Source: Zootoca vivipara
Lineage: Eukaryota
Assembly: GCF_963506605.1 (NCBI RefSeq)
Contig: NC_083277.1
Coordinates: 9,672,001 to 9,736,000 of the forward strand
Length of the DNA stretch: 64,000 nt
Direction of reading: 5' to 3'
Shown: positions 6,283-22,975 of the stretch, piece after piece
How the letters are laid out: every line of letters begins with the position of its first letter
Position numbering within the stretch: position 1 is the first letter of the stretch
Position numbers and translations under genes: made by a program
The notes under the pieces: model-generated
What the model was told of the DNA's origin: nothing
Databases searched by the model: none
The model's input: the letters and a program-made list of their open reading frames with translations, nothing else

Positions 6283-6603
6283 TTTATTTATTTATTTATT
6301 TATTTATTCTCCACCCTCCCCAGTCAAAACCGGGCTCAGGGTGGCTAACACCAATAAAATTACAATAAAACATAAAAAGCAATTAATTAAAATACAGATT
6401 AAAATACAATATTAAAATTTAAAATGCAGCCTCATTTTAAGTAGTCCATAAATCCAAACCATGAGGGAGGAAAAACACAGGGGTCAGACTAAGGCCAGCC
6501 CAAAGGCCAGGCGGAACAGCTCTGTCTTGCAGGCCCTGCGGAAAGATGACAAATCCCGCAGGGCCCTGATCTCCTGTGAAAGAGCGTTCCACCAAGTTGG
6601 GGC
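6283..6603 (-). mobile_element. L2-clade LINE 3' end, split by the provirus and continuing at 17936-17970
   Basis: Rejoining the flanks gives a minus-strand RAFSxxAPxWWNxL-type ORF2 terminus, followed by an (AATA)n tail. Confidence 0.65.
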
Positions 6604-8054
6604 TGTTATAAGGGGCAGGGTAAGAGGAATTTGCCCCCATGCATTACGAGACTACCAATGTACAGAGAGGGGACAGTTTAGCCAGAGAGAAGCCATTTTC
6701 TTGACTTCATGGTTCAAAAGTCAAGAGAAGCCTATTCTGCCGTATCAAGGTAAATTAATCCCCTGCTGACCCAGACAGTTCCTCCAGACCTCTTGGAAAA
6801 CACACGCACCCTTTTACATAACCCATTGCTAAATCCTGTCTCACACCCACATGGAAACTTGCATAATCGCACCTCCAGCCAGATAACCAAAAACGATAAC
6901 GATCACCCATTCTCGGAACTTCCACCCTCCCAAATCCCCGCCTGAGGTGCCCTCCCTTGTACTTTTCATGACCCAGATTCAGCTGAACCATGGACCTTTT
7001 TAAGATATATATATTTATCCCTAATAAACTATTCCGTTGTTCCTTTAGTAATGTTATGGTGTCCTCTATCATGTTACCCGATGCATCTCCCTATTCTCTA
7101 CTCTGTATGAAACTGTATCTATTTACGAAACCGCAATAATATAACCTTGCACTGATACCTTGAACCTTTCTATCAAATTGTACCTGTTTAAAAAATCCTG
7201 CCATCCTGAAGAATTAATTGTTTGACTCTACTATTTGCAAAGGTTTCCACTTATGCACCCTTCTAAGCTTTTAGTTCGTTGTCCTTGATAAAATGTTATA
7301 AGCTGTCAAACATCGCTCTGAACTGTGAACGTTTTACCGCTGTTAGAATTGTATCCTCTCTGTGTATTATTAGTTACTGTATAATATCTTCTTCTTCTTT
7401 AACTTTAAGTGTAGTCTTTTCTCTCTATTGCAAACGTTGAATATTTGTATAAACTTTGTTGCAAGTTAATAGGCACCTCTGTGGCACAACATATTTTACG
7501 GACTGTTTCCACTTCTTCTTGATACCACACTGCCACCTAGCCAGTCTAAAAGAGCACGACTCAAATACACACTTTCAGTGAGAACAACAATTTTATTTGA
7601 TAAACAGGTGTTATCAACAATCTTCCCACATCCGCAGAGTCTTCCTGTCAAACAATAAGGAGACATGCATAATCATTACCTGGACTATCACCATGATATC
7701 TTACATCAAGAATTCCATCAACCCCTTTGTCCTCTCGCGATTACCCCCTCCCAGAACCCATTTCCCCACCTTTTATGCAATTCTGTACTATTGGAAATGA
7801 AACCTATAAATTTGTGAAGCTTCCTTTGTTCGGGGTCCCTTCACTTCAACTTGCTTGTGTGGACGGATCGCTATTGCAATAGCTTTATTATTTAATTAAT
7901 AAAGTACCTTGCTTCGTACGTCCTGGTTTGGCCTCTGTTATTTGGTAGGCAGGAGACGCTCAAACTTCGTCTGCCTGCCAGGATACCTGGACTCTTCCTG
8001 GGTCAAGGATCCACTTAATTCTAGGACCGTGTAGCTCTGCAAATTTTTACAACA
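6604..8054 (+). repeat. 5' LTR (1451 bp)
   Basis: TGTTATAAGG...TTTTTACAACA; TATAAA at 7805-7810, AATAAA at 7898-7903; direct repeat of 16481-17931 (offset 9877). Confidence 0.97.
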
Positions 8055-8057
8055 GTT

Positions 8058-8075
8058 TGGCGACCACTTCGGGGA
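8058..8075 (+). promoter_or_regulatory. Primer-binding site, tRNA-Arg(UCG)-like
   Basis: TGGCGACCAC starts 3 nt after the LTR and matches the first 10 nt of the Arg(UCG) PBS as I recall it (TGGCGACCACGAAGGGAC); the centre is mismatched. Confidence 0.7.
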
Positions 8076-8965
8076 CCCAGTTTTGCCTTGAGCTCCGGGT
8101 TCACTGAGGAAGGGGAGCCCAGCGCGCCCTTGCCTCTTTTGCAGGGGGGTAAACCAACCTCAGGACCCGAGGCGCTTGGTAGTAATTGAGAGTCCAAGCG
8201 GGACCCCCAGGACGAAGCAACGTTTAAAGGGACAAGGCTGTTTTTTCTTCAGGAACCAGTGGGAAGCTGGAGACAACGGGATTCGACTGAAAGGATCGGT
8301 CGTGAGTATTAAAAGGGGACACGCGGTGGGCTGATTACTGCAGCAACTAAAATTCTAAAACTTCACTCTTCACTGTTCTCTCCTTTTCTGTTTCTTATCT
8401 TGGGCTCTAGTTGCAGCTAAGCTGTAAAGGCATAAGGGATAAAGAAGAATTAGAGCCTTTGGGATCCGTCCTTTCGTTAAACGAAATACCCAGAAGGACG
8501 GACCCAGCTCGCTCCTGCCAATCTGCGCAGGAGTTCTGAGCAATCTACCCAACCTTTTTTCCGTATTCCTCTGCTCTTAATCTTCGGGTGAAGCCGCCCC
8601 TAGACACCCCCGATCCCCACCGGGAAGTGACGGGGTTGTTCTAGATCGCAAGGTCACCCGTTCTTTTCAAAAAACCTTCCTTCCAAGGCTAACCACCCGG
8701 CATTGCGTGGGCAAGCGTCCAGGGCAGGTAGTCTTTCTATTAGATTGTAAGAGGCAGGAAAGTTGCTGCAGGACCCTAGGCAATTGATGACCAGAAGGGG
8801 GTCCTTAGGTATCAAGCTGCACCAGGCCGCCTAGTAGTTAGTGCACGCGAACGGCAGGCAGGAACACCACAAGGACGTGGGGGTGAGTCATAGACTCGGG
8901 AAGTTAAGAGTGTCCAGGAACAGGGTCGGGGACCCAGAACTGCAGTATAAAGAGCCAGAATAAAC

Positions 8966-10883
8966 ATGGGTGCGCATAATTCAAAGGAATTCCTGTCCCA
9001 GACTCCCAGCCGTGGCAAAGCTCAATGGAAGCTTCGCCAAAGTGGGGACTCTGAGGATGAAAGCCCATTACAATTCATATTCGAACATTGGCATGAATTA
9101 CCTGGGGTGGAAAAACTTGACAAAAATCGGCTAAAAAGACTCTGTCAGAAAGACTGGATCCGCGTCACTGCGGACCATCCAGAGGGGGAAAAATGGATCC
9201 CGAGAGGTTCCCTTAATGCCCAGCGAATCTCTGCACTAAGAATAACACTGGAAGACCAATACCCCTTGCAAATTCGATATCTCAACTTATTTGAAAAGGC
9301 AAAAATCCTTCTTAAAGGGACTGAAGGTCCAACAGCCCCACAAATGCCAGTAATAACGGAAAGGAGTTCAAGACCCCCACCGTACCAGGAAACAATTATA
9401 GAAGAGCCGGTAGACCAGCTCTGCAGCCCTGCCGAAGCCCCGGCACCATCTCCTTCTAACGCAAACAGACAACGGGAGGCTGAGGTCCAAGACTCCCGGA
9501 GTGCAGTGGAGGGCGGATCTGTAACTCCTGCCATGCCTAGTCTAAGTCCAGCACCTCAGGGCAACCTCGAAGCCCGAATTCCTGCTGAAGTACCCCCCCA
9601 GCTAAGTCCTGTTGCTAGCAGAACTCGTAGTCGTGACCCAGAAACCAATTTAGTGGAGCAACTAGTGACAGTTTTATCGGAATTAAAGGGATCGTCCACA
9701 AAGGAAAGAGACCCCATAGAAAAGGAACCAGAGGCTACCGAGAAAACCCAGGGACAATATCCCTTAAGGTCAGTCCCAGTTTCAGATGGGACGAACTTCG
9801 TCTATTCCCATGTTCCCTTTTTAACCTCAGACCTACTGAATTGGGCTCAGCAGATGTCGACCTTAAAAGACAATCCTGACATGTGCTATCGTAAAATTGC
9901 CATTATTTTTTCTACTCATAATCCCTCCTGGGCAGACGTACACATGCTCCTGAATGGTCTTTTTAATGAGCCCGAACGGGAGGAGATTTTAGAGAAAGCA
10001 ACAGAAGCCCTAAAATTACCTGATGTCCAACTCAATAAACCTGCAGGGATCGAGCCTCTAACTGCAGCCCAACTTAGAACCGAACCAGAATGGGACTATA
10101 ACACCACGCCTGGGATTTGGTATCTGAAGGCGTTTCGAAAAGCCATCTTACATGGGATAAGGCTCGCGGGAAAAAAATCTACAAATTGGACTAAGATCAG
10201 GGAGGTAACCCAAGAACCTGATGAAACTCCCACCGCCTTCTATACCAGGCTAATAACCGCCTTTCGAACATGGGGGGGGGATCGATCCTGATACCCCAGA
10301 CAACCAAGTAGTGGTGAAAAGCTTCTTTAAAGACCAAGCTTGTCCAGACATCAGAAAATTCCTCTCCCTCCAAGTAGCCTATGAAGGGAAACCCATGAGT
10401 GAGATCCTCGGGCTTGCGAAAACCATTTATGATGGAAGGGATGAGAAAAAGAAAAAGGAGGCAAGGAAGGAAAAGGAGGACGATGCTAGAGTCCTCGCCT
10501 TGGCTTTGAGTGCAGCCAGTACCGCATATAACCCCCAACCTAGTTACCCCTTCAGAAATTCAAAGGCTCCCACACAACCTAGAGGGATGAACGCACATGC
10601 AAATCGACAAGCCTCTCCTTACCAAAGGGCTAACAATGTCCAGCATCGAGAGACCACCTCTCAATGCTTTTTCTGCAATCAAATAGGGCATTTCAAGCGA
10701 AATTGTCCATTATTCTTAAATACCGTGGCACCAAAACCAGCTCTAGGGATGGGATCCAATGCAGCACAAAACCCTAACCCGATAGCGCCAAACCCTTTCC
10801 AGAATCAGCGCCCATTCCAACTACCGCTGGAATTTAACCAGGAGCAAATGCAACCCACTCTTAATTCAGAGACTAACCAATGA
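8966..10883 (+). CDS. gag: Gag polyprotein (~638 aa if the one extra G in the 10272-10280 run is removed)
   Basis: MGAHNS myristoylation motif, PTAP and PPPY late domains, major homology region (IREVTQEPDETPTAFYTRL), single CCHC knuckle CFFCNQIGHFKRNC. ORFs 8966-10291 and 10311-10883 join by deleting one G. Confidence 0.93.
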
Positions 10884-13800
10884 CAATTAAACGGGGATCC
10901 TTCAAACCTTGCCCTGGTATGCCCGACAATTGCCTTATCAGCCCATGACCCCATATGCACAATCACCATAGATGGCCATGAGTATCAGTGTTTACTAGAT
11001 ACAGGGGCAACTTTCTCAACTTTAAACGACAGTCATCTGAGGTCCAGTCAGCAAAAACAACGTATAATGGGCATTGATGGGATCCCCAGGACATGCGCTC
11101 TTTCAGAGCCAGCGAAAGTAACGATAGGGCCCCTGACTGCTGAGCACTCATTTCTACTGACCCCGAGCCCTGTCAACCTACTAGGGCGAGACCTACTATG
11201 TAAATTACAGGCAACTATAACTTGCAGCACTGAGGGTATCTACCTCCACATGCCAGAAGAGGCGGCAGTCTCCTTTCAAGGCATTTTAAAGGAAGAAAAC
11301 CTGACTGATTTAGAAATACCAACCCCTCTGATTGACAAGGTACCAGTTCACCTATGGGGAAATACTAATACCTCTGTGGGACTCTTAAAATCGGCAGATC
11401 CCGTTGTTATTAAATACCGCACTGATGTCCCATACCCCTCCATCAAACAGTACCCCTTGCCGCAGGAGGCAATAGAAGGATTGAGGCCAATGATACAGGA
11501 TTTTATGGATCAAGGCATCCTTGTTCCCTGCGTCAGCCCATGCAATAGTCCACTCCTGCCGGTACGCAAGCCATCACCCCCGGGTGCCCCAGTTAAATAC
11601 AGGCTTGTCCAAGACCTCAGAATTATCAACAACTTTGTGATACCCCGCCACGCCATCACCGCCAACCCTAATACAATTTTGACCGGAATCCCACCAGATA
11701 GTACATATTTCAGTGTCATTGATTTATGCTCCGCCTTCTTTTCCATAAGAGTGCATGAGAAAAGCCAATTTCTGTTCGCCTTTACGTGGGAAAAAGGACA
11801 GCTGACTTGGACTAGACTCCCACAGGGATATGTAGAGAGCCCAACAATTTTTGCTTGTGCATTGCATAGGGACCTACAAGACCTCTCCTTTCCTGCTGGC
11901 TCCTCCCTTTTAATATATGTAGATGACTTGATAATTTGCTCCACCTCCGCAACTAATTGCCACATGGACACCGTCCATCTACTAACCGCCCTTGCCGACA
12001 AGGGCCACAAGGTCTCACCAAAAAAACTACAATATTGCCAAACTGAAGTAAAATACTTGGGCCACATAATTGGCCACGGAACAAGAGCTTTGACAACTGA
12101 AAGAGTAGATGCTATAGCTAAGGTTCCCCTGCCAAAGACCAAGAAACAGCTCCGCGGGTTTCTAGGAATGAGCGGATTTTGCAGGTCATGGATCCCAGGG
12201 TATGGAGAATTAACCAAACCCCTTGTAAAGATGACTAATAAGGACGAACCAGAACCCCTTGAATGGTCCAAAGAAAGCCTACAAAATTTTGAAACTATCA
12301 AAAGGGAACTGAGGTCCGCTCCAGCCTTAGGATTGCCAGACTACCGTCTCCCCTTTTCGCTGTTCGTGCATGAACAGAAAGGGGTAGCCTCCGGAGTTCT
12401 GACACAAACCTTCAGAGGCCAGGAACGTCCTGTCGCCTACTACAGTATTCAATTAGACCCGGTAGCTAAGGGGACTGTAGGTTGCCTCAGGGCAATTGCT
12501 GCCGCTGCGGAATTAGTGGACAGAGCCCTAGAAATCGTTCAAAATCAAGAACTAATCCTAAATGTACCACATGCTGTAGCCACCTTGTTAAACTTACGAA
12601 ACTGTCAACATTTTAGTAACGAACGACTAAATCAGTACGAAGCTGCCCTGCTCACACCATCCAACGTGCGCATTAAAAGAGTCAATACCCTAAATCCAGC
12701 CACCCTACTGCCTCTGCCCGACGACGGGACCCCCCATCACGATTGCACCTTAGCAGTCCGCTTGGCCGAAAGGCCACGGGAAGATTTAGACCACCTTCCC
12801 TTGGAAAACCCAGATATCTCAATCTTTACAGATGGAAGTTCCAAGGTCGTGGCTGGAACAAGACAAACTGGGTACGCTGTGGTAACACACGACACCATCC
12901 TAGAAGCTGCACCTATAAACCCGCGCTACAGTGCGCAGGCAGCTGAGCTTATTGCCCTTATCAGAGCTTGCGAATTGAGTGAAGGCAAGCGCGTAAATAT
13001 CTATACTGATTCCAAATATTGTTTCGGACTGGTACACGCTACGGGTACCCTCTGGAAACAGAGGGGATTCCTAACAGCTGCAGGAACACAAATCTCTCAC
13101 GCACCGCTAGTGAAAAGACTAATGGACTCCATACATTTCCCGAAGGCCATCTCAGTAATACACTGCAAAGTACACACAAATGGCACGGACTTTGTCTCCT
13201 TAGGGAATAGTATTGCGGACGCCGCTGCCCAGAAGGCAGCGGCCATGAGAGGGGAAATGTATGAAAATGAATTTCAAGCCATCTTAGTTCCAGCCGATGT
13301 AGACTTCAATCGAATGTATCGCACCGCTAGTGTAGAAGAAATAAGCTCATGGCAACAACTGGGGGCACACCAAAGGGACAATGCGTGGGTTTTGCCGGAC
13401 GGACGTCTAGCAATGCCTAAAGCCTGGGTACCCCGCCACCTCCGGGTTTTACACAATTTCACACACTGGGGAGCAAACCGCCTAGCAGACAGCATCCTTA
13501 GGCATTGGTATGCCCCAGGTGCACACCAATTTGCGAAGGCAGTATCCAAAAATTGCACCATCTGCGCCGGATTCAACCCAAAACAAGAACCACGCAAACC
13601 ACCAGGGTCTAGACCTTGGGCATATATACCCTTTGAAAGCCTACAACTAGATTTTGCAGAACTCCCGAACTGTATGGGGTTTAAACAATTACTTGTCATA
13701 ACAGACCGACTTTCAGGTTGGCCAGAAGCTTTTCCATGCAAACGAGCAAATGCTCAAACCGTTGCCAAAATCCTCATGCAGGAAATAATTCCCAGATACG

Positions 13801-14690
13801 GAGTTCCACGTCGATTAGACTCTGACCGTGGGACACATTTCGCTGCAGAGGTAGTTCAGTCTGTCACCAAGGCATTTGGAATTAAATGGGAACTCCACAC
13901 CCCGTACCATCCGGCCTCTTCAGGTCAGACGGAGCGGATGAATGGACTTATAAAAACCCAATTGGGAAAAATCTGTAAGGCTACCGGGCTAAAATGGATA
14001 AATGCTCTTCCGTTAGTCCTACATAATATTCGTAGCCAGCCGAGAGGACTCTTGAAACTATCTCCCTATGAACTCCTGTTCACCAGACCCTCCCCGACTC
14101 ATACCACCCAACTCCCCGTCTCTGAGCTAGAGACTGGGGAAAACGAACTGACTGTATATGTTACACAATTACAACGACAACTAAAGAAACTACACCATTA
14201 TGCAGCAACCTGTCAGAATGTTCCCCTTGATGTCGATGCTCACTCCTTCACGCCTGGACAGTGGATTTGGGTTAAAACTTACAGGCGAGCCACCTTACAA
14301 CCCCAGTGGGAAGGACCCTACCAGATTCTCCTGACGACCCCAACTGCAATCAAGGTCTCTGAACGTTCTGCCTGGATTCATCACACCTTCTGTAAGTCCG
14401 CACCAAACCCCAACGACCTGGGTGACGTTGCAAGGACCTCCCCATCTTCCATCAACTCCACCGAAGACACCGTCCCACTCGACAATCCCGCGCCAGCCAT
14501 CGAATCCCCCCAAGACCCTCCCGAGGAACCCACCTCGATCCCAATAACAGCCAAGGAAGGTGACCAAGGAGACCTGGAGAAGTGGATGTCAAAGATCCTT
14601 GTAGTACCTGAACCAGACGACCCAGATCATCCACCCATACGAATGCAGTTCCGGAAACAGAAATGCCACGACACCGGGAGCGGGACCTGA
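10884..14690 (+). CDS. pol: Pro-Pol (protease, RT, RNase H, integrase), intact and in frame with gag
   Basis: Frame is open from 10884: LLDTGA protease, LPQGY/YVDD RT, FTDGSS RNase H, HHCC plus D-D-E integrase (LQLDF, LDSDRG, QTERMN) and a GPY/F module (WEGPY). Confidence 0.97.
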   Translation, partial: QLNGDPSNLALVCPTIALSAHDPICTITIDGHEYQCLLDTGATFSTLNDSHLRSSQQKQRIMGIDGIPRTCALSEPAKVTIGPLTAEHSFLLTPSPVNLLGRDLLCKLQATITCSTEGIYLHMPEEAAVSFQGILKEENLTDLEIPTPLIDKVPVHLWGNTNTSVGLLKSADPVVIKYRTDVPYPSIKQYPLPQEAIEGLRPMIQDFMDQGILVPCVSPCNSPLLPVRKPSPPGAPVKYRLVQDLRIINNFVIPRHAITANPNTILTGIPPDSTYFSVIDLCSAFFSIRVHEKSQFLFAFTWEKGQLTWTRLPQGYVESPTIFACALHRDLQDLSFPAGSSLLIYVDDLIICSTSATNCHMDTVHLLTALADKGHKVSPKKLQYCQTEVKYLGHIIGHGTRALTTERVDAIAKVPLPKTKKQLRGFLGMSGFCRSWIPGYGELTKPLVKMTNKDEPEPLEWSKESLQNFETIKRELRSAPALGLPDYRLPFSLFVHEQKGVASGVLTQTFRGQERPVAYYSIQLDPVAKGTVGCLRAIAAAAELVDRALEIVQNQELILNVPHAVATLLNLRNCQHFSNERLNQYEAALLTPSNVRIKRVNTLNPATLLPLPDDGTPHHDCTLAVRLAERPREDLDHLPLENPDISIFTDGSSKVVAGTRQTGYAVVTHDTILEAAPINPRYSAQAAELIALIRACELSEGKRVNIYTDSKYCFGLVHATGTLWKQRGFLTAAGTQISHAPLVKRLMDSIHFPKAISVIHCKVHTNGTDFVSLGNSIADAAAQKAAAMRGEMYENEFQAILVPADVDFNRMYRTASVEEISSWQQLGAHQRDNAWVLPDGRLAMPKAWVPRHLRVLHNFTHWGANRLADSILRHWYAPGAHQFAKAVSKNCTICAGFNPKQEPRKPPGSRPWAYIPFESLQLDFAELPNCMGFKQLLVITDRLSGWPEAFPCKRANAQTVAKILMQEIIPRYGVPRRLDSDRGTHFAAEVVQSVTKAFGIKWELHTPYHPASSGQTERMNGLIKTQLGKICKATGLKWINALPLVLHNIRSQPRGLLKLSPYELLFTRPSPTHTTQLPVSELETGENELTVYVTQLQRQLKKLHHYAATCQNVPLDVDAHSFTPGQWIWVKTYRRATLQPQWEGPYQILLTTPTAIKVSERSAWIHHTFCKSAPNPNDLGDVARTSPSSINSTEDTVPLDNPAPAIESPQDPPEEPTSIPITAKEGDQGDLEKWMSKILVVPEPDDPDHPPIRMQFRKQKCHDTGSGT

Positions 14691-14831
14691 AACCCCAGTT
14701 TTTGTTTTACCTTCCCTTTCTCATACCACCTTCCCAAAACCCAACCCAGTTTTCCCACCCTCCTCCCTTATCTTTCTCAAACCCAAAAACCACCACCCCC
14801 TCCCTTCCCTAACTGTATCGTGTCTGTCGAG

Positions 14832-14853
14832 TTCTTTCTTTATTTTTATACAG
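14832..14853 (+). promoter_or_regulatory. env splice acceptor
   Basis: ttctttctttatttttatacag| lies 25 nt before the env ATG; candidate donors GTGAGT at 8302 and 8883. Confidence 0.7.
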
Positions 14854-14878
14854 ATTTTCGCCTCTGCCAACCCGTGAG

Positions 14879-16448
14879 ATGGACCGGACCCTGCTCCTGG
14901 GATACTGTCTCGCCTTCATCACCTACGTCGCAGCCCAGCAGCTCAATTGTGGAGAAAATCCTTCTGAGTTCTTCTTCCTGGATCATCGGACCGTCGACTC
15001 CTCTGACCCTACTTCCTTGAACAACCTTGGAGACTTCAAATTCTGCCTTCCCGGAACTAAGAGGTGGCTACCACATGCCTTTCGACCCCAACTGCGAGGC
15101 ACCCAAACCTGGGAATTACTTATAAGGTCTGCCTCCTTCTCTATATTGGGACGTGCTTTCTTTACCCTTGACCATTCCTGGAACCGGTTAACTTGCCACA
15201 ATGGAACTTCTCATCAGACCCAATGGGGCACCACTATTAAGACTTTTGACCCCGCAGAACAAGGACAAGGACTTTGGGGGGAATACACGGACTCTATGCA
15301 TTATGACTTTTGGACTTATGGATTCATGTGTACCAATCCATCCACTGCTACGACCATTCAAGGTATCTGCGTTCGAAAATTTTGTTGTATATGGGACATA
15401 GGGACGGCATCAACCTGGGAAGGAAATAGGTATGTCGAGGGATGGTTACACTCAGTTGGAGGTGGGGCTAGTACGGAATGGGACCATGTAGGACCCCAGA
15501 GATGCGGGGGAGTCTCAACTGACCTACACTTACTCCACCGACAGGACCCTTTACAGCCCCTCGGCACTGCCCCTAGAAACGTCAACCTTACAGGACTTCC
15601 CTTGCCCCCGCGCATTTCCGATATCTCTGCATGGCAAAGTAATACGTACGTCCAGCTCCTTCAGCGGGCTATTCTGGCTCTGTTCCTCCCGAGGTTATAC
15701 GTGGGTCAGTATTCACATGAGAGGATCCTGCTTCCTCGGCCACATACACCCAGGGTTCCGGGTAACCCAGGACTTACCTACCGGCCGCTTGAGAAACAGG
15801 AGGTCCCCGACTACCCCGTTAAAACCTAAGGCAAAGGCAGAGACCTGGCTCCGCGCAGTGTTCCCAGCCTATGGGGCTTTCTCGAACCATATGGACATCT
15901 TAAAACTAACGGATATTTTGTTGCGGTTCATCAATGAATCTGAGGCCGCCACGCTAGCAGTGTTAACAGAACTCACTCAGGTCCGATCCCTCTCTATTCA
16001 GAACCGCTTGGCTCTTGATCTCCTCCTGTCAGCGCAGGGCGGGACCTGCAAGCTCATCGGGGCGGAGTGCTGTATGTATGTATCCGATCAGACCCTGAAT
16101 ATAACAGCACACCTCCGAGCCATCGATTCCCTAACAAAAGATCTCCACGAGGTGCAGAATGAAGGGGTCTCAGACTGGGATATCTGGTCGTGGCTTCCCA
16201 ATGCCTCCTGGCTCAGGGAAATCGTGAAAGGCACCCTTTTTCTAGCTCTATCTTTGATCCTCCTCCTTACCTCCCTTTGCTGTTGCCTCCAATGTTTCCC
16301 GGCTATGTTAACTCCCCGCAGACAAAAGCCCTCCCCAACCTCCTTTCAAGCTCCGTTATGTCCTTCCCCTGAGTTCCCCGAGATAGTACCGATGTTCCAC
16401 CTTGGGAGTGGGGAGTACATTACCCCGGTGTGCGGAAATAATTTTTAA
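14879..16448 (+). pseudogene. env: env, frameshifted and apparently internally deleted near 15665
   Basis: Signal peptide MDRTLLLGYCLAFITYVAA. The second frame has GLFWLCSSRGYTW...GSCFLG, furin site RNRR, immunosuppressive domain QNRLALDLLLSAQGG, CX6CC (CKLIGAECC) and a TM anchor. No CXXC in either frame. Confidence 0.88.
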
Positions 16449-16468
16449 TTACTTAAAAATTAATCCGC

Positions 16469-16480
16469 AGAGAGGGGAAA
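16469..16480 (+). promoter_or_regulatory. Polypurine tract (PPT)
   Basis: AGAGAGGGGAAA directly before the 3' LTR. Confidence 0.9.
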
Positions 16481-17931
16481 TGTTATAAGGGGCAGGGTAA
16501 GAGGAATTTGCCCCCATGCATTACGAGACTACCAATGTACAGAGAGGGGACAGTTTAGCCAGAGAGAAGCCATTTTCTTGACTTCATGGTTCAAAAGTCA
16601 AGAGAAGCCTATTCTGCCGTATCAAGGTAAATTAATCCCCTGCTGACCCAGACAGTTCCTCCAGACCTCTTGGAAAACACACGCACCCTTTTACATAACC
16701 CATTGCTAAATCCTGTCTCACACCCACATGGAAACTTGCATAATCGCACCTCCAGCCAGATAACCAAAAACGATAACGATCACCCATTCTCGGAACTTCC
16801 ACCCTCCCAAATCCCCGCCTGAGGTGCCCTCCCTTGTACTTTTCATGACCCAGATTCAGCTGAACCATGGACCTTTTTAAGATATATATATTTATCCCTA
16901 ATAAACTATTCCGTTGTTCCTTTAGTAATGTTATGGTGTCCTCTATCATGTTACCCGATGCATCTCCCTATTCTCTACTCTGTATGAAACTGTATCTATT
17001 TACGAAACCGCAATAATATAACCTTGCACTGATACCTTGAACCTTTCTATCAAATTGTACCTGTTTAAAAAATCCTGCCATCCTGAAGAATTAATTGTTT
17101 GACTCTACTATTTGCAAAGGTTTCCACTTATGCACCCTTCTAAGCTTTTAGTTCGTTGTCCTTGATAAAATGTTATAAGCTGTCAAACATCGCTCTGAAC
17201 TGTGAACGTTTTACCGCTGTTAGAATTGTATCCTCTCTGTGTATTATTAGTTACTGTATAATATCTTCTTCTTCTTTAACTTTAAGTGTAGTCTTTTCTC
17301 TCTATTGCAAACGTTGAATATTTGTATAAACTTTGTTGCAAGTTAATAGGCACCTCTGTGGCACAACATATTTTACGGACTGTTTCCACTTCTTCTTGAT
17401 ACCACACTGCCACCTAGCCAGTCTAAAAGAGCACGACTCAAATACACACTTTCAGTGAGAACAACAATTTTATTTGATAAACAGGTGTTATCAACAATCT
17501 TCCCACATCCGCAGAGTCTTCCTGTCAAACAATAAGGAGACATGCATAATCATTACCTGGACTATCACCATGATATCTTACATCAAGAATTCCATCAACC
17601 CCTTTGTCCTCTCGCGATTACCCCCTCCCAGAACCCATTTCCCCACCTTTTATGCAATTCTGTACTATTGGAAATGAAACCTATAAATTTGTGAAGCTTC
17701 CTTTGTTCGGGGTCCCTTCACTTCAACTTGCTTGTGTGGACGGATCGCTATTGCAATAGCTTTATTATTTAATTAATAAAGTACCTTGCTTCGTACGTCC
17801 TGGTTTGGCCTCTGTTATTTGGTAGGCAGGAGACGCTCAAACTTCGTCTGCCTGCCAGGATACCTGGACTCTTCCTGGGTCAAGGATCCACTTAATTCTA
17901 GGACCGTGTAGCTCTGCAAATTTTTACAACA
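16481..17931 (+). repeat. 3' LTR (1451 bp)
   Basis: Same length as the 5' LTR; the ORF track gives identical translations in both copies; no difference found in spot checks. Confidence 0.97.
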
Positions 17932-18045
17932 GGGCCAATACTGAAAAGGCCCTGGCCCTAGTAGAGCCGCCTCTATCCTTAGAATCTATTAATAATTTTT
18001 GTTTTATGCTTGGCTTCTTCTCCTGCCAGATAAATTTTGAAATAT

Positions 18046-18902
18046 CTACTGTGCTGTGTGGATTTTCTCATGTGCACAAAGGTCTGACTTCCGAACGAAT
18101 GTTTTCCCACAAAGGGCGCACTTGTATGGCATCTCCCTCATGTGTATTATCTCGTGTTTTACAAGTTTGGACTTTATAGGGAAGCTTTTCCCACATTGCA
18201 GGCACTCATACGGCTTCTCCCCTCTGTGCTTCCTCACGTGGTTGTTCAGGTAACGCTTTTTGTCAAAGCTCTTCCCGCAGTCTGAGCACTTGTACGGTGT
18301 CTCCAGTGTGTGCAGCCTGACGTGTTCCTGTAAGACTGAACAATCAACAAAGTTTTTGCCGCAGTGAGAGCACGTGTACAGAGACTCTCCTGTGTGGATT
18401 CTCATGTGCTGCATAGAGCCTGAACTGCAACTGAAGTTTTTCCCACTGTTAGAGTAATTATACGTGTTCCACAATCCTGTGTGGGTTCTCTCATGTGCAA
18501 GAAGGCCCTGCGTCTGAATGACACTGTTTCCACAATAGAATGACAGGTATGGCTTCTCTCTGATGTGAATGCTCTGCTGTACCATAAGGTCTGAACTACG
18601 TTCAAAGTTTCTTCGACAGTCAGACGATGCTTTTTGTACCTCACTACACTCTATTCTTTGTGATTCAGCGGATTCTCTCTCCTCTCTGCTAACTTCTGCA
18701 TTGAAAGTGGATTTTTCCACCAGACTACTCTCATAGCTTCTCTCTTGATCATTCAACAGCCCTGGCTGATTCTCAAACATCATTCGCTTTTGATGGTCAT
18801 GGAAATCCTCATCTCTTCCCAAGCAGGTATTGCTTGCTTCTCCTTGCACAGAATCTTCCTGGTGGAGGGTATTTGTCTCATTCTCCAATACCCGCTCATT
18901 AC
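18046..18902 (-). CDS. Gene 2 last exon: spacer, 3 degenerate and 4 intact C2H2 fingers
   Basis: Acceptor attcccacag| before 18902, phase 1 and in frame with ORF 18046-18888; CxxC...HxxxH repeats with TGE/GEKP linkers. Confidence 0.9.
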
Positions 18903-19135
18903 CTGTGGGAATAAAAAAATCCCAGAGAATCTTATCTGTTCTGGAGTGATTGTTCCAAACAGAAAATCAACAGAGTTTAGTATCAGAGCTGTTGCAGGCA
19001 GAATATCTGAGAATATTCTCTTTCCCCCCTCATAATATGAGAATTAAAGTATTCCACTGAAATTGTGTAGTCGTAGCTTCAGCGCAGACAATAAAAAGCA
19101 CTTCTAATTAAAATTTAAAACTTAAGGCAAGGCAA

Positions 19136-19541
19136 GCTGGACCATAAAGAAGGCTGATCGCCGAAGAATTGATGCTTTTGAATTATGGTGCTGGAGGAGA
19201 CTCTTGAGAGTCCCATGGACTCCAAGAAGATCAAACCTATCCATTCTGAAGGAAATCAGCCCTGAGTGCTCACTGGAAGGACAGATCCTGAAGCTGAGGC
19301 TCCAATACTTTGGCCACCTCATGAGAAGACTCCCTGGAAAAGACCCTGATGTTGGGAAAGATGGAGGGCACAAGGAGAAGGGGACAACAGGGGACGAGAT
19401 GGTTGGACAGTGTTCTCGAAGCTATGAACATGAGTTTGACCAAACTGCGGGAGGCAGTGGAAGACAGGAGTGCCTGGCGTGCTATGGTCCATGGGGTCAC
19501 AAAGAGTTGGACACTACTAAACGACTAAACAACAACAACAA
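19136..19541 (+). mobile_element. BovB (RTE clade) LINE 3' fragment in a gene 2 intron
   Basis: RVPWTPRRSNLSILKEISPECSLEGQILKLRLQYFGHLMRR, (CAA)n tail, near-TSD aaggcaaggcaa/aagacaaggcaa. Confidence 0.85.
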
Positions 19542-20502
19542 CAAGACAAGGCAATGGCTGCTGGCTTAGTTTATGAGAGTCTTTTTTTATTTTAAAGGAT
19601 TAGAGAAATTCATGGAAAACAGGTTGGTCATGTTGTACTGGATCTCTCTAGGCAAATATTGTCCAGCTCTGAATATCAGATGCTAGAGTAAAAAAATAAA
19701 TACATGAACCCCCAGAAAATAGAGGGCTGAGGCCTATAAGCCCAGTTTAAGGAAAGGTTACAGCTTTTAGGACTTTTAGTTTACAAGAAAGAGTAGTAAG
19801 GGAAGGAATGTGACTGTGATATGGAGAAAGTGAAGAGAGACATTTTCCACCTTATCTCATAATACTAGAACCTGGAGAAATCCAATGAAATTGAACAAGG
19901 GCTTGTGGCTATGAGGGGGTTGAGTGACAGGGGAAGTGCCGTGGTGAGGGAGAACTGTGGACAGGGGTGCCAACTTTAATAAAATATTGGGGGTTCAGGT
20001 AAGCCCCACATAATACACATAATAGATCACATGATGCAGTGCACTACTCCATTTGAATGGCAACGCCCATCAACTTGGGGGGACACACCCCTAAAATATT
20101 TTATTGGGGGACCAGAGGGAGCTCATCCCCTAGGAGTTGGCTCCTATGTGGAGGTTTGGTGAGGAGGAGCTTAGGGGTGGGAGACTTTGGCATGGAATGA
20201 GCTAAAGTGGAGGGTAGGGGGGTGAGCAGAGCTTAGCATGAGTGTCACCCCCTAGAAGTAGCAGCAGCAACAATGATGGGATTGTTGGCACCCGTCTGTC
20301 TTGGGAGGCAATGGAGGAGTCCGCCTTGAGGGGTGAAGTCAACTTGTCGGAAGTTGCAGCGCCTGATGTGGCTGTAGAGACCGATGTGGGATAATGATAA
20401 TAATAATAATGATGACAGACAAGTGCATATTTGCCAGAGAGGTGAAAAGAGGAGTGAGAGGAGAAACAGCCTCATGAAAATCTGAGCATGGTGAATCCTT
20501 AC

Positions 20503-20632
20503 TCGGCAATCTCGTCGCATCACTCTGCTCGTCCGCAGCTTCTCTGAAGACCTGCCCAGCCCAGGTGTCCTGTGGCAGAAGCTGGCCTGCCTCAGAAGGA
20601 CCGGCAGACATCACCGCAAAAGGCACAGGTAC
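20503..20632 (-). CDS. Gene 2 middle exon (130 nt), degenerate KRAB-A-like
   Basis: gtttcag| acceptor, |GTAAGG donor, phase 0 to 1, open frame VPVPFAVMSAGPSEAGQLLPQDTWAGQVFREAADEQSDATRLP joining the SCAN and finger exons. Confidence 0.75.
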
Positions 20633-20834
20633 CTGAAACAGCAGTGAGGAAGATCATGAACGGAAGAGGCCATATGGCTTCCGCCAGCGTGAAGTTGGAT
20701 AACAAGTAATGGTCCGAAGGAACCCGACATGACATACACTTTCTGGCCACCAGGATCTGGGCTAGAGCCAATCCCTCCAAATACATTGATTTCTATGGGT
20801 TACTTAACACCCAGACACTTGAAATAGCAAATTA

Positions 20835-21160
20835 CCGTATTGTTGTGAATATAAGCCGCACCTGCAAATAAGCCACACCTTTAAAATTCAGTGGCTTGGA
20901 GGAGGCTTGGGAGCTGCAGACGGGATGTGCCCAGGCTGCTCTTTGGGGAGGGGGGGGGCACGTCTCTTCCCTCCATTCCGACGGCTCGGGGGGGAGACGC
21001 TTGGGAGTGGCGGGCTAGCTGGGCGCCGTTGTCCTGCACTCCTGGGCTGCTTCCTGGAGGGCGGGGGGACTGCGGTGTAAAGTTGTGAATATAAGCCACA
21101 CTTGACTTTTCACCATTGGAATTTGGGGGGAAAGTGCGGCTTATTTTCGGGTCAATACAG
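20835..21160. mobile_element. Tc1/mariner-pogo-type MITE
   Basis: TA-flanked, imperfect TIRs CCGTATTG/CAATACAG; similar element at 60073-60225. Confidence 0.65.
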
Positions 21161-21586
21161 TAACTGATAGAAATCCATTTCGGCACTATATCACAGACCA
21201 GGCTTCCTCAACCTCGGCCCTCCAGATGTTTTGAGACTACAATTCCCACCACCCCTGGTCCTGCTAGGTAGGGATCATGGGAGTTGTAGGCCAAAAACAT
21301 CTGGAGGGCCGAGGTTGAGGCAGCCTGTCATAGACACCATATGCCAGCAGGTGAAGAACTGGATGTGTCCAGCAGTCTGGATACTTATCTCCCCCTCCCA
21401 CCCTGCAGGCCAAATCTGACAGGTAGGCGGGGCTGCCCACCTGTCAATCCCTCAACATCACAGTGACATGATGAGGTGCACACACATGCAGCCGTGTGCA
21501 AGCTCTAACAACCAGGTGATCGTCATTTGCAAACGCTCACCATTAGCTGACCACAAGCCCAATGGAGAGTCCTGGAAGGTCTAAAT

Positions 21587-21722
21587 CAGTCATCCCCAAA
21601 CTCAGCCCTCCAGATGTTTTGGGACTACAATTCCCATCATCCCTGACCACTGGTCCTGTTAGCTAGAGATGATGGGAGTTGTAGTCCCAAAACATCTGGA
21701 GGGCTGAGTTTGGGGGTGCCTG
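21587..21722. mobile_element. hAT MITE
   Basis: TSD GTCTAAAT on both sides. Confidence 0.85.
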
Positions 21723-21771
21723 GTCTAAATGAACCAGCCAGAGAGAGCTTCCCCACTGCAGAATTTCTCAC

Positions 21772-22497
21772 CTTCTGTTCTGGACCCTCCATCTCGTCCC
21801 GGCCCAAGAGGAATTCCTCCGCCAGGGCCACCGCATGGGCACAGCTCTCCGGCTTTTGCTCCCTGACCCAGCTCTGCATGTCTCCCGGCAGGATGCTCAG
21901 GAGCTGCTCCAAGATCAGCAGCTCCAGGATCTCATCCTTTGTGTGCCTCTCAATTTTCAGCCACTGGCCACAAAGCTCTCGGAGCCGGCCATAAACGCCT
22001 CTCGGACCCTCCGCCTCCCGATAGCGGAGTTGCCTGAAGTGCTGCCGCTGCTTCTCCCTCGCAATGGCCTCCCCTTGCAAGATGGCCGCCTTCACCTTCC
22101 TGTAGTCTCCCTTGTCCTGGGCACTGAGGCCGCTGAAGGCCTGCTCAAGGTCTCCGCTGAGAGCCGGCAGGAGGAGGGTCACCCACTTGTCCTGAGGCCA
22201 CCGGCAGGCTGAGGCTACTTGCTCAAAGGAGGCCAGGAAGGCCTTAGCATCCTCCCATGCTGAGGGCTCCTCAGATATCTGTAGGTTCCTGCATCCTGAG
22301 TTGGGGGCCTGCAGCATCCTCAGAAACTCCTGCAACTGGGCTTCCCAGCGTTCCAGCGCCCCTTCTTCCGGCTCACGTTTTATATAATGGGAAGGTGTCC
22401 CAATAAGGAACTGCCCTCTGCCCCTGTGATGTGGGGCTTTTGCTACACCTTCCATTTCTTCCCATGCTCTGGAGCCTGTCACATTTCGCATGTCCAT
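21772..22497 (-). CDS. Gene 2 first coding exon: Gag capsid-NTD-like region plus SCAN (whole protein ~570 aa)
   Basis: SCAN motif RQHFRQLRYREAEGPRGVYGRLRELCGQWLK...; donor AAG|GTGAGA after 21772; acceptor tgttag| before 22674. Confidence 0.92.
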
Positions 22498-22975
22498 TTT
22501 GAGAACCGGACTGCCCCTTCCTCCGCCTCCTCCTCTCGTTTTCTCTCCCGTCTCTTGTCAAAAATGGAGGTGGTCCAAGACCCTCAAGGGGGTCTGCAAA
22601 ATCAGTAGAAGTGGTTTATTTCTAAGTGACGACCAGAAATTCTCAAGCCAAGCCAGCGAGGGAGGCTCTTCCTCCTAACAGCAAGAAACAAAAAATAAGT
22701 GAGAGGAAAGAGTGCTCATTTTATTTTTTTGCTTGTTATTTTGTTAATGTTGTCAATATTGTTTTATAGATTATGACTGCTGTAGTACTTTGTGAATCCT
22801 ATAAGACTTTTGCTGTAATTGTGCTGTTTTCTTCAGGTGGTGGTGGTGTTAATAGTGTTTTATATATTATAATTGTTTTACTGATTATTTTTAATTCTTT
22901 TGCTGGTGATTTGTTATTCATTCTATATGGCACGTATTTGTGATATTGTTGTGTTATTGTTATTTATCTATCCAT

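Follow-up and report, generated by a model that had tools for sequence, protein, structure and literature searches.

A UGA-CAA-UUA gag-pol junction in a young lacertid endogenous retrovirus as a probable type I-like readthrough site with a predicted long-range stem

The 64,000-nt stretch of the Zootoca vivipara genome analyzed here, which we call the window and number from its first letter, carries a complete provirus at 6604-17931 on the + strand. At its gag-pol junction the codons at 10875-10889 read AAC CAA TGA CAA TTA, so that a readthrough context CAA-TGA-CAA-TTA occupies 10878-10889, with the stop at 10881-10883 and a CARYYA hexamer at 10884-10889. UGA as the stop between gag and pol is in itself not new among retroviruses. 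What appears to be new is a probable type I hexamer behind that UGA, quite possibly accompanied by a stem of the alphavirus kind. The reading that we place first, and to which we give about even credence, is that readthrough is set jointly by the type I hexamer and by an extended stem resembling those of type II sites. The whole case is drawn from one defective copy, from its sequence and from prediction. Papers are cited by their PMC numbers.

The arrangement of the two genes is clear. An earlier sequence-only reading of the window had described gag as ending in these codons and the same frame as continuing into the LLDTGA protease, and this was confirmed. The 3' part of gag (10257-10883), which holds the end of the capsid, a single CCHC knuckle at 10662-10709 and a tail rich in Gln, Pro and Asn, terminates with the junction TGA, and pro-pol (10884-14690) follows in the same frame with 1268 open codons for protease, reverse transcriptase (RT, with YVDD), RNase H and an integrase with MLVIN_C. 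No stop interrupts the pol frame, while the other two frames hold 92 and 59. The junction stop lies between the zinc knuckle and the protease DTG, which is where class I retroviruses put it (PMC13517186, section 4.1). The Asp of LLDTGA is residue 39 of pro-pol and the DTG is encoded at 10998-11006, while the first in-frame ATG after the stop comes at 11067, past the catalytic motif. Because this leaves no usable start downstream of the stop, we infer with high confidence that Pol is made by programmed UGA readthrough. The Gag tail itself (10710-10880) counts about 57 Gln/Pro/Asn-rich residues beyond the knuckle, and in related lacertid Gags the corresponding tail is about 90 residues long; a tail of this length places the stop far from the knuckle as well as from the DTG.

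The hexamer is the exact CAAUUA of tobacco mosaic virus (TMV), which supports the claim that a vertebrate retrovirus carries this signal at a natural gag-pol readthrough junction. Type I sites are defined as UAG-CAR-YYA, although the hexamer also works on UGA (PMC3542737, PMC13517186). In the lizard provirus CAR-YYA stands directly 3' of the stop (CAA TTA), but the stop is TGA. In the wider tobamovirus context xxA-UAG-CAA-UUA-xxG, the xxA is present here and codon +3 is AAC, not the xxG kept across 105 tobamovirus sequences. The description of the junction as a tobamovirus-type signal is thus accurate for the hexamer and inaccurate for the stop and for codon +3. The other known classes fit no better. 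The TGA is followed by C as in type II, but the CGG or CUA triplet that defines that type (PMC13517186) is replaced by CAA; and in place of the UAG, the following G and the purine-rich spacer of type III we find TGA CAATTAAA, with no compact H-type pseudoknot after the spacer. The site behaves like a type I motif, yet falls outside type I by its stop codon, outside type II by its next triplet and outside type III by every feature.

Published reporters bear directly on what such a hexamer can do. In vertebrate cells, a heterologous OPRL1-CARYYA reporter gave about 15% readthrough, with all six bases mattering and UGA performing about as well as UAG (PMC4132726), and the UGA of Venezuelan equine encephalitis virus (VEEV) followed by CAA-UUA and the VEEV stem gave 10.1% in cells, against 7.6% for the wild type (PMC3159437). 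Since CARYYA is leaky after UGA in these vertebrate-cell reporters, CAAUUA is expected to favor readthrough at this junction, selected for that effect or not. The hexamer very likely acts at this junction, to judge from those constructs, and taking the readings discussed below together we are fairly confident that it contributes to readthrough.

Its occurrence by chance can be estimated from the base composition of 8977-14690. At a given position, and as single-site values, the expectations are p = 0.0030 for any CARYYA, p = 0.00034 for the exact CAATTA and p = 8.5e-6 for CAA-stop-CAATTA. Six of the 1267 in-frame dicodons of pol are CARYYA, and 14 of the 5425 stop triplets on both strands of the whole window are followed by it (12 of 2678 on the + strand and 2 of 2747 on the - strand). 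CARYYA is therefore ordinary at a random stop and unlikely (about 0.3-0.5%) at a single functional one, a figure that applies to a single junction. A second stop-CARYYA, TAA CAG CCA at 14545-14553, lies within pol but out of its frame, and we take it as chance.

The sequence-only reading had also contrasted the junction with murine leukemia virus (MLV) and considered the signal to be independent of structure. The first of these points stands insofar as the MLV-type arrangement is absent: there is no purine-rich spacer, and a permissive scan, which fires at 27 of 114 control positions, detected no H-type pseudoknot at the stop. The range 10890-10960, in which a pseudoknot had been suggested as worth predicting, proved empty, and 10700-11250 gave no Rfam match at E up to 1. 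MLV was nonetheless an incomplete comparator, for UGA junctions were already known in epsilon-like retroviruses (PMC13517186). Close to the stop there is little sign of folding. The first 107 nt fold less stably than average shuffles (local fold z = +0.85), and a local hairpin at 10884-10932 was rejected, being no more stable than shuffles and placed so that it would bury the hexamer.

Independence of structure, on the other hand, became doubtful, as a long-range stem of 13 bp is predicted to begin 9 nt past the stop. The segment 10893-10900 (GGGGAUCC) is perfectly complementary to 11080-11087, and with this core included the predicted helix reaches a length of 13 bp, interrupted by one bulge. 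Its predicted 5' arm (10893-10905, + strand) encodes G-D-P-S, and its predicted 3' arm (11074-11087, + strand, with a 1-nt bulge at 11078) encodes I-D-G-I-P of the protease; the 9-nt unpaired spacer contains the hexamer, and the loop would measure 168 nt. Among 1320 phase-matched positions, a duplex as strong as this one (predicted energy -22.9 kcal/mol) occurred at 1 when the span was 210 nt, at 2 for 260 nt and at 6 for 400 nt; none of 189 non-overlapping control positions reached it. Each arm is the other's best partner within 10480-11520, and in a separate set of five fold windows the stem paired with a probability of about 1.0 in four and of 0.36 in one. Where the window reads G-D-P-S, two Podarcis lilfordi gene models have G-N-L-S at an equal distance from the protease; for each of their G, N and L there are codons that could form pairs with those of the conserved P, I and G (the joint background is 0.013, and for just the two residues that changed about 0.13).

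Further information on the family comes from proteins. Homologue searches gave 9, 8 and 8 matches and a representative search gave 394, from which seven at 63% identity or more, among the best 150 of the 394, were examined further. Fifteen related Gags were compared. Six are without a knuckle and two more (P0041 and P0191) have early ends in unrelated sequence, leaving seven that could be counted for their final residue, which is N, H, Y, H or Q (the three Q belonging to one 90% cluster). All seven end in a residue with a middle-A codon, against a background of 0.34 per residue, in a count in which the Gags are related to each other and the end of P0021 is possibly out of frame; such ends would fit the known effect of 5' adenines. 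The codons at +1 and +2 after the stop are not visible in the proteins examined, which either start at the Met after the DTG or are spliced round the stop. In public annotations of P0007-P0033, retroviral Pol is labelled 'NYNRIN-like' and false introns bridge the gag-pol stop, and these introns hide readthrough sites from protein-level searches. A DNA-level scan of bacterial and archaeal genomes found no relative.

Several observations weigh against a composite signal. The pairing probability of the stem reaches at least 0.5 in only 27 of 68 windows, being 1.0 in all 16 windows that end by 11120 and 0.0 in those ending at 11240-11250. None of nine windows was stabler than shuffles (z from -0.94 to +1.01), nothing outstanding was seen within 160 nt of the stop, and the statistic used for the stem was picked after the stem had been seen. 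The compatibility of amino acids in Podarcis lilfordi is not covariation. A stem may be unnecessary to a hexamer that yields about 15% by itself, and convergent selection on CAAUUA would have a single locus as its basis. The CAA upstream of the stop, which had been counted as a further match to TMV, is present but says little: tobamoviruses keep only xxA at this place, and the Q that corresponds to it ends Gag in one of five clusters and so is not a family trait.

Readthrough might be set, as the sequence-only reading proposed, by the UGA-CAA-UUA context alone, as in TMV, with the stem being incidental or serving some other RNA function. CARYYA does not need a downstream structure in TMV (PMC3542737, PMC13517186), the 15% of the OPRL1 reporter was obtained in a foreign UGA context, and the A at -1 and -2 agrees with the known 5' stimulator; the dependence of the fold on the window and the non-significant overall z-scores point the same way. 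Yet the predicted stem begins at a distance from the stop that is known for readthrough stimulators, in strength it ranks within the top 0.1-0.5% of matched positions, and 3' structures are listed for gamma- and epsilonretroviruses alike (PMC3542737), which leaves this explanation possible but rather unlikely in our judgment. Conversely, UGA-C and an extended stem could do the work in the manner of type II, and CAAUUA beyond its C would then be chance or a by-product of encoding Gln-Leu. UGA-C is leaky by itself (PMC3542737), the retrovirus ZFERV has UGA-CGA (PMC13517186), the codon usage of pol, with Q-L given, would supply a Leu codon compatible with CARYYA in 44% of cases, and neither the upstream CAA nor the tobamovirus xxG is kept. 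This has to be set against the improbability of the exact hexamer (p about 0.0003-0.0006, or about 0.003-0.004 for any CARYYA), against the effect of all six bases on readthrough in vertebrate cells irrespective of selection (PMC4132726) and against the definition of type II by triplets other than CAA, and we consider this reading quite improbable.

It is more improbable still that the stop is not read through at all. The TGA could have arisen by nonsense mutation within a gag-pol fusion, or pol could be expressed by reinitiation, by splicing, from an internal promoter as in the Candida element Tca2, or by frameshifting. This copy is otherwise damaged, with frameshifts in gag and env despite identical long terminal repeats (LTRs), and Tca2 has a UGA junction and a pol expression reported as largely independent of gag translation. 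But relatives stop here too: of the nine related Gags that have a knuckle, seven terminate 100-108 residues past the knuckle's start, and no continuous linker across the junction was seen in any of the lacertid Gag-Pol models examined, which have no X and splice round the stop. Seven named Pol models of relatives begin at the Met that follows the DTG. Reinitiation and a spliced message were rejected on the ground that a start at ATG 11067 would lose the catalytic Asp and with it the protease, and the only acceptor-like AG in 10700-11070 lies upstream of the stop. The heptamer C_CCU_UUC at 10793 was considered as a frameshift site and rejected, given that pol is in the zero frame and a -1 shift would exit it.

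Under the joint action of hexamer and stem, most ribosomes translating the parent virus would end translation at gag's UGA, yielding Gag, and a fraction of roughly 5-15% would insert a near-cognate amino acid and continue through pro-pol to give Gag-Pol. CAAUUA immediately after the stop would weaken termination as it does in TMV. The stem, starting 9 nt past the stop, would stand at the mRNA entry channel of the ribosome and, in the manner of alphaviruses, pair with protease codons some 180 nt downstream. Leakiness of UGA-CAAUUA in vertebrate cells and stimulation of readthrough by alphavirus-type stems have been published on other constructs. Our own inferences are the occurrence of readthrough here, the rate given for it, the formation of the stem and selection of either element for its role. 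A further and more tentative suggestion, which we regard as doubtful, is that a lacertid retrovirus lineage independently evolved a composite cassette of CARYYA behind UGA and a long-range stem, whose 3' arm is the coding sequence of protease G-I-P, and that both were kept across sister lineages.

The provirus that carries the junction fits the usual description of a class I endogenous retrovirus, with paired LTRs, TG...CA ends and a short target-site duplication. Its LTRs (5' LTR 6604-8054 and 3' LTR 16481-17931, both on the + strand) are 1451 nt long and 100% identical, and the 4-bp duplication GGGC lies at 6600-6603 with its second copy at 17932-17935. The identity of the LTRs together with this duplication implies a very recent insertion. 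A primer-binding site is probably located at 8058-8075, starting with TGG 3 nt past the LTR. The leader (8055-8965, about 910 nt from the 5' LTR to the gag ATG) has no ATG-started open reading frame (ORF) of at least 50 amino acids on the + strand. Gag_p30 (PF02093), MLVIN_C (PF18697) and TLV_coat (PF00429) score above the Pfam cut-offs, and the best solved-structure (PDB) matches of the RT are MLV and xenotropic MLV-related virus (XMRV), at E about 1e-162. On these features we read the provirus as a young, gamma- or epsilon-like class I element of lacertids. Its Pol differs from a RefSeq protein named for Zootoca vivipara at 2 of 1207 residues, and the protease relatives that come after that record belong to Zootoca and Podarcis, with identities of 66-85%. 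The integrase has an acidic, proline-rich C-terminal extension (14400-14690) that ends in a motif W-x-S-x-I ... I-x-L-x-F, which is common to Zootoca and Podarcis relatives.

The copy in the window is defective. The 5' part of gag (8966-10291, + strand), which begins with MG and holds the Gag_p30 capsid, breaks off by frameshift at a run of G at 10272-10280, the only homopolymer of at least 8 in the provirus; comparison with the Podarcis Gag-Pol P0007 puts the change of frame at 10275-10279. Because of this frameshift, ribosomes starting at the gag ATG of this copy would miss the frame of the junction. In env (14879-16448, + strand, with a gamma-type transmembrane subunit and TLV_coat), a frameshift splits the gene into overlapping frames at 14813-15829 and 15492-16448. 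The junction thus documents how the parent virus worked and not necessarily any activity of the locus at 6604-17931. Identical LTRs next to a broken gag and env may reflect the very recent insertion of a defective genome, or else assembly errors.

The provirus lies in antisense orientation within a C2H2 zinc-finger gene cluster, which occupies 17932-22557 and the remaining window on the - strand with 84-nt repeats and comprises ORFs of 4, 6, 18, 18 and 21 fingers. It lies about 115 nt beyond the stop of the 4-finger ORF (18046-18966), possibly inside the 3' untranslated region of that ORF. No second copy and no solo LTR was found in the 64-kb window.

If a composite cassette of this kind is indeed kept across lacertid retrovirus lineages, it would be the first retroviral type I site and, going by the reviews consulted, the first in a vertebrate virus. 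It would also be the natural counterpart of a hybrid that has so far only been built in the laboratory. A natural UGA-CAA-UUA junction would show that the ratio of Gag to Gag-Pol can be set without a pseudoknot, by a signal thought typical of plant viruses, and the junction offers a short, directly testable cassette for learning if the effects of local context and of an extended stem are additive in a natural setting. The reviews consulted list the combination of UGA-hexamer and long-range stem for no retrovirus. Full-text literature searches, judged mostly from listings and covering few subscription papers, returned neither a CARYYA junction in any retrovirus nor a description of this lacertid family; of 421 papers that contain the nonamer literally, the 40 listed were by their titles unrelated matches of the primer type, term searches of PMC12690878 and PMC5009743 gave nothing relevant, and one supplement file of PMC3159437 does not contain 'retrovir'.

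Comparison with known systems places the junction between several of them. It shares with TMV the exact CAA-UUA hexamer and the CAA before the stop, but has UGA where TMV has UAG. Pomoviruses and benyviruses use type I signals for coat-protein extensions; here the signal stands at the gag-pol junction of a vertebrate retrovirus. The benyvirus beet necrotic yellow vein virus, whose stop context is UAG-CAA-UUA, also resembles the provirus in its 9-nt spacer and predicted stem; the stem predicted here is long-range, with its 168-nt loop, and not compact. SIRE1 of soybean reportedly has a TMV-like signal (CARYTA). This retroelement too uses stop suppression, but it is a plant Ty1/copia element and does so at the pol-env junction (PMC2194720, PMC2829016), and a fungal element is described without CARYYA (PMC3441728). 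Animal viruses are said to have only types II and III (PMC13517186), a statement contradicted by two insect viruses, Providence virus and Aphis glycines virus 2 (UAG-CAA-CUA), with type I sites (PMC3542737, PMC5127029).

Among retroviruses, Moloney MLV performs the same biological job with the same gene layout, and MLV and XMRV supply the closest solved structures of RT. Moloney MLV has UAG and a purine-rich 8-nt spacer, along with an H-type pseudoknot, unlike the UGA, the pyrimidine-containing spacer and the lack of a detected H-type pseudoknot at our junction, whose stop also differs in lying 38 codons upstream of the DTG. The epsilon and epsilon-like viruses resemble the provirus in being class I elements of cold-blooded hosts, three of them with UGA (SSSV UGA-AGA, ZFERV UGA-CGA and RMEV UGA-AGU, next to SnRV UAG-GGC; PMC13517186), but none of these has CAA after the stop, and the host here is a squamate. 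Walleye dermal sarcoma virus is listed with UAG-R and an extended stem-loop (PMC3542737, PMC13517186). Readthrough in the epsilon-like group is described as experimentally unverified and the cis-elements outside the MLV group as unclear, and the 24 retroviruses tabulated with readthrough sites include no reptilian one (PMC13517186).

Parallels in design are found in the alphaviruses (VEEV, eastern and western equine encephalitis viruses and Sindbis virus), which share UGA-C and to which the predicted stem would conform in its 13 bp and single bulge, its distance of 9 nt from the stop and its long loop. The VEEV stem has a spacer of 8-9 nt, 11-12 bp and a loop of 101 nt, and that of Sindbis virus a spacer of 12 nt, 11 bp, a 3' bulge and a loop of 154 nt. 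The lizard junction departs from them in its CAA in place of CGG or CUA, in the still longer loop and in a stem that is so far predicted. In its combination of elements it matches the engineered VEEV construct in which UGA-CAA-UUA was joined to the viral stem (PMC3159437).

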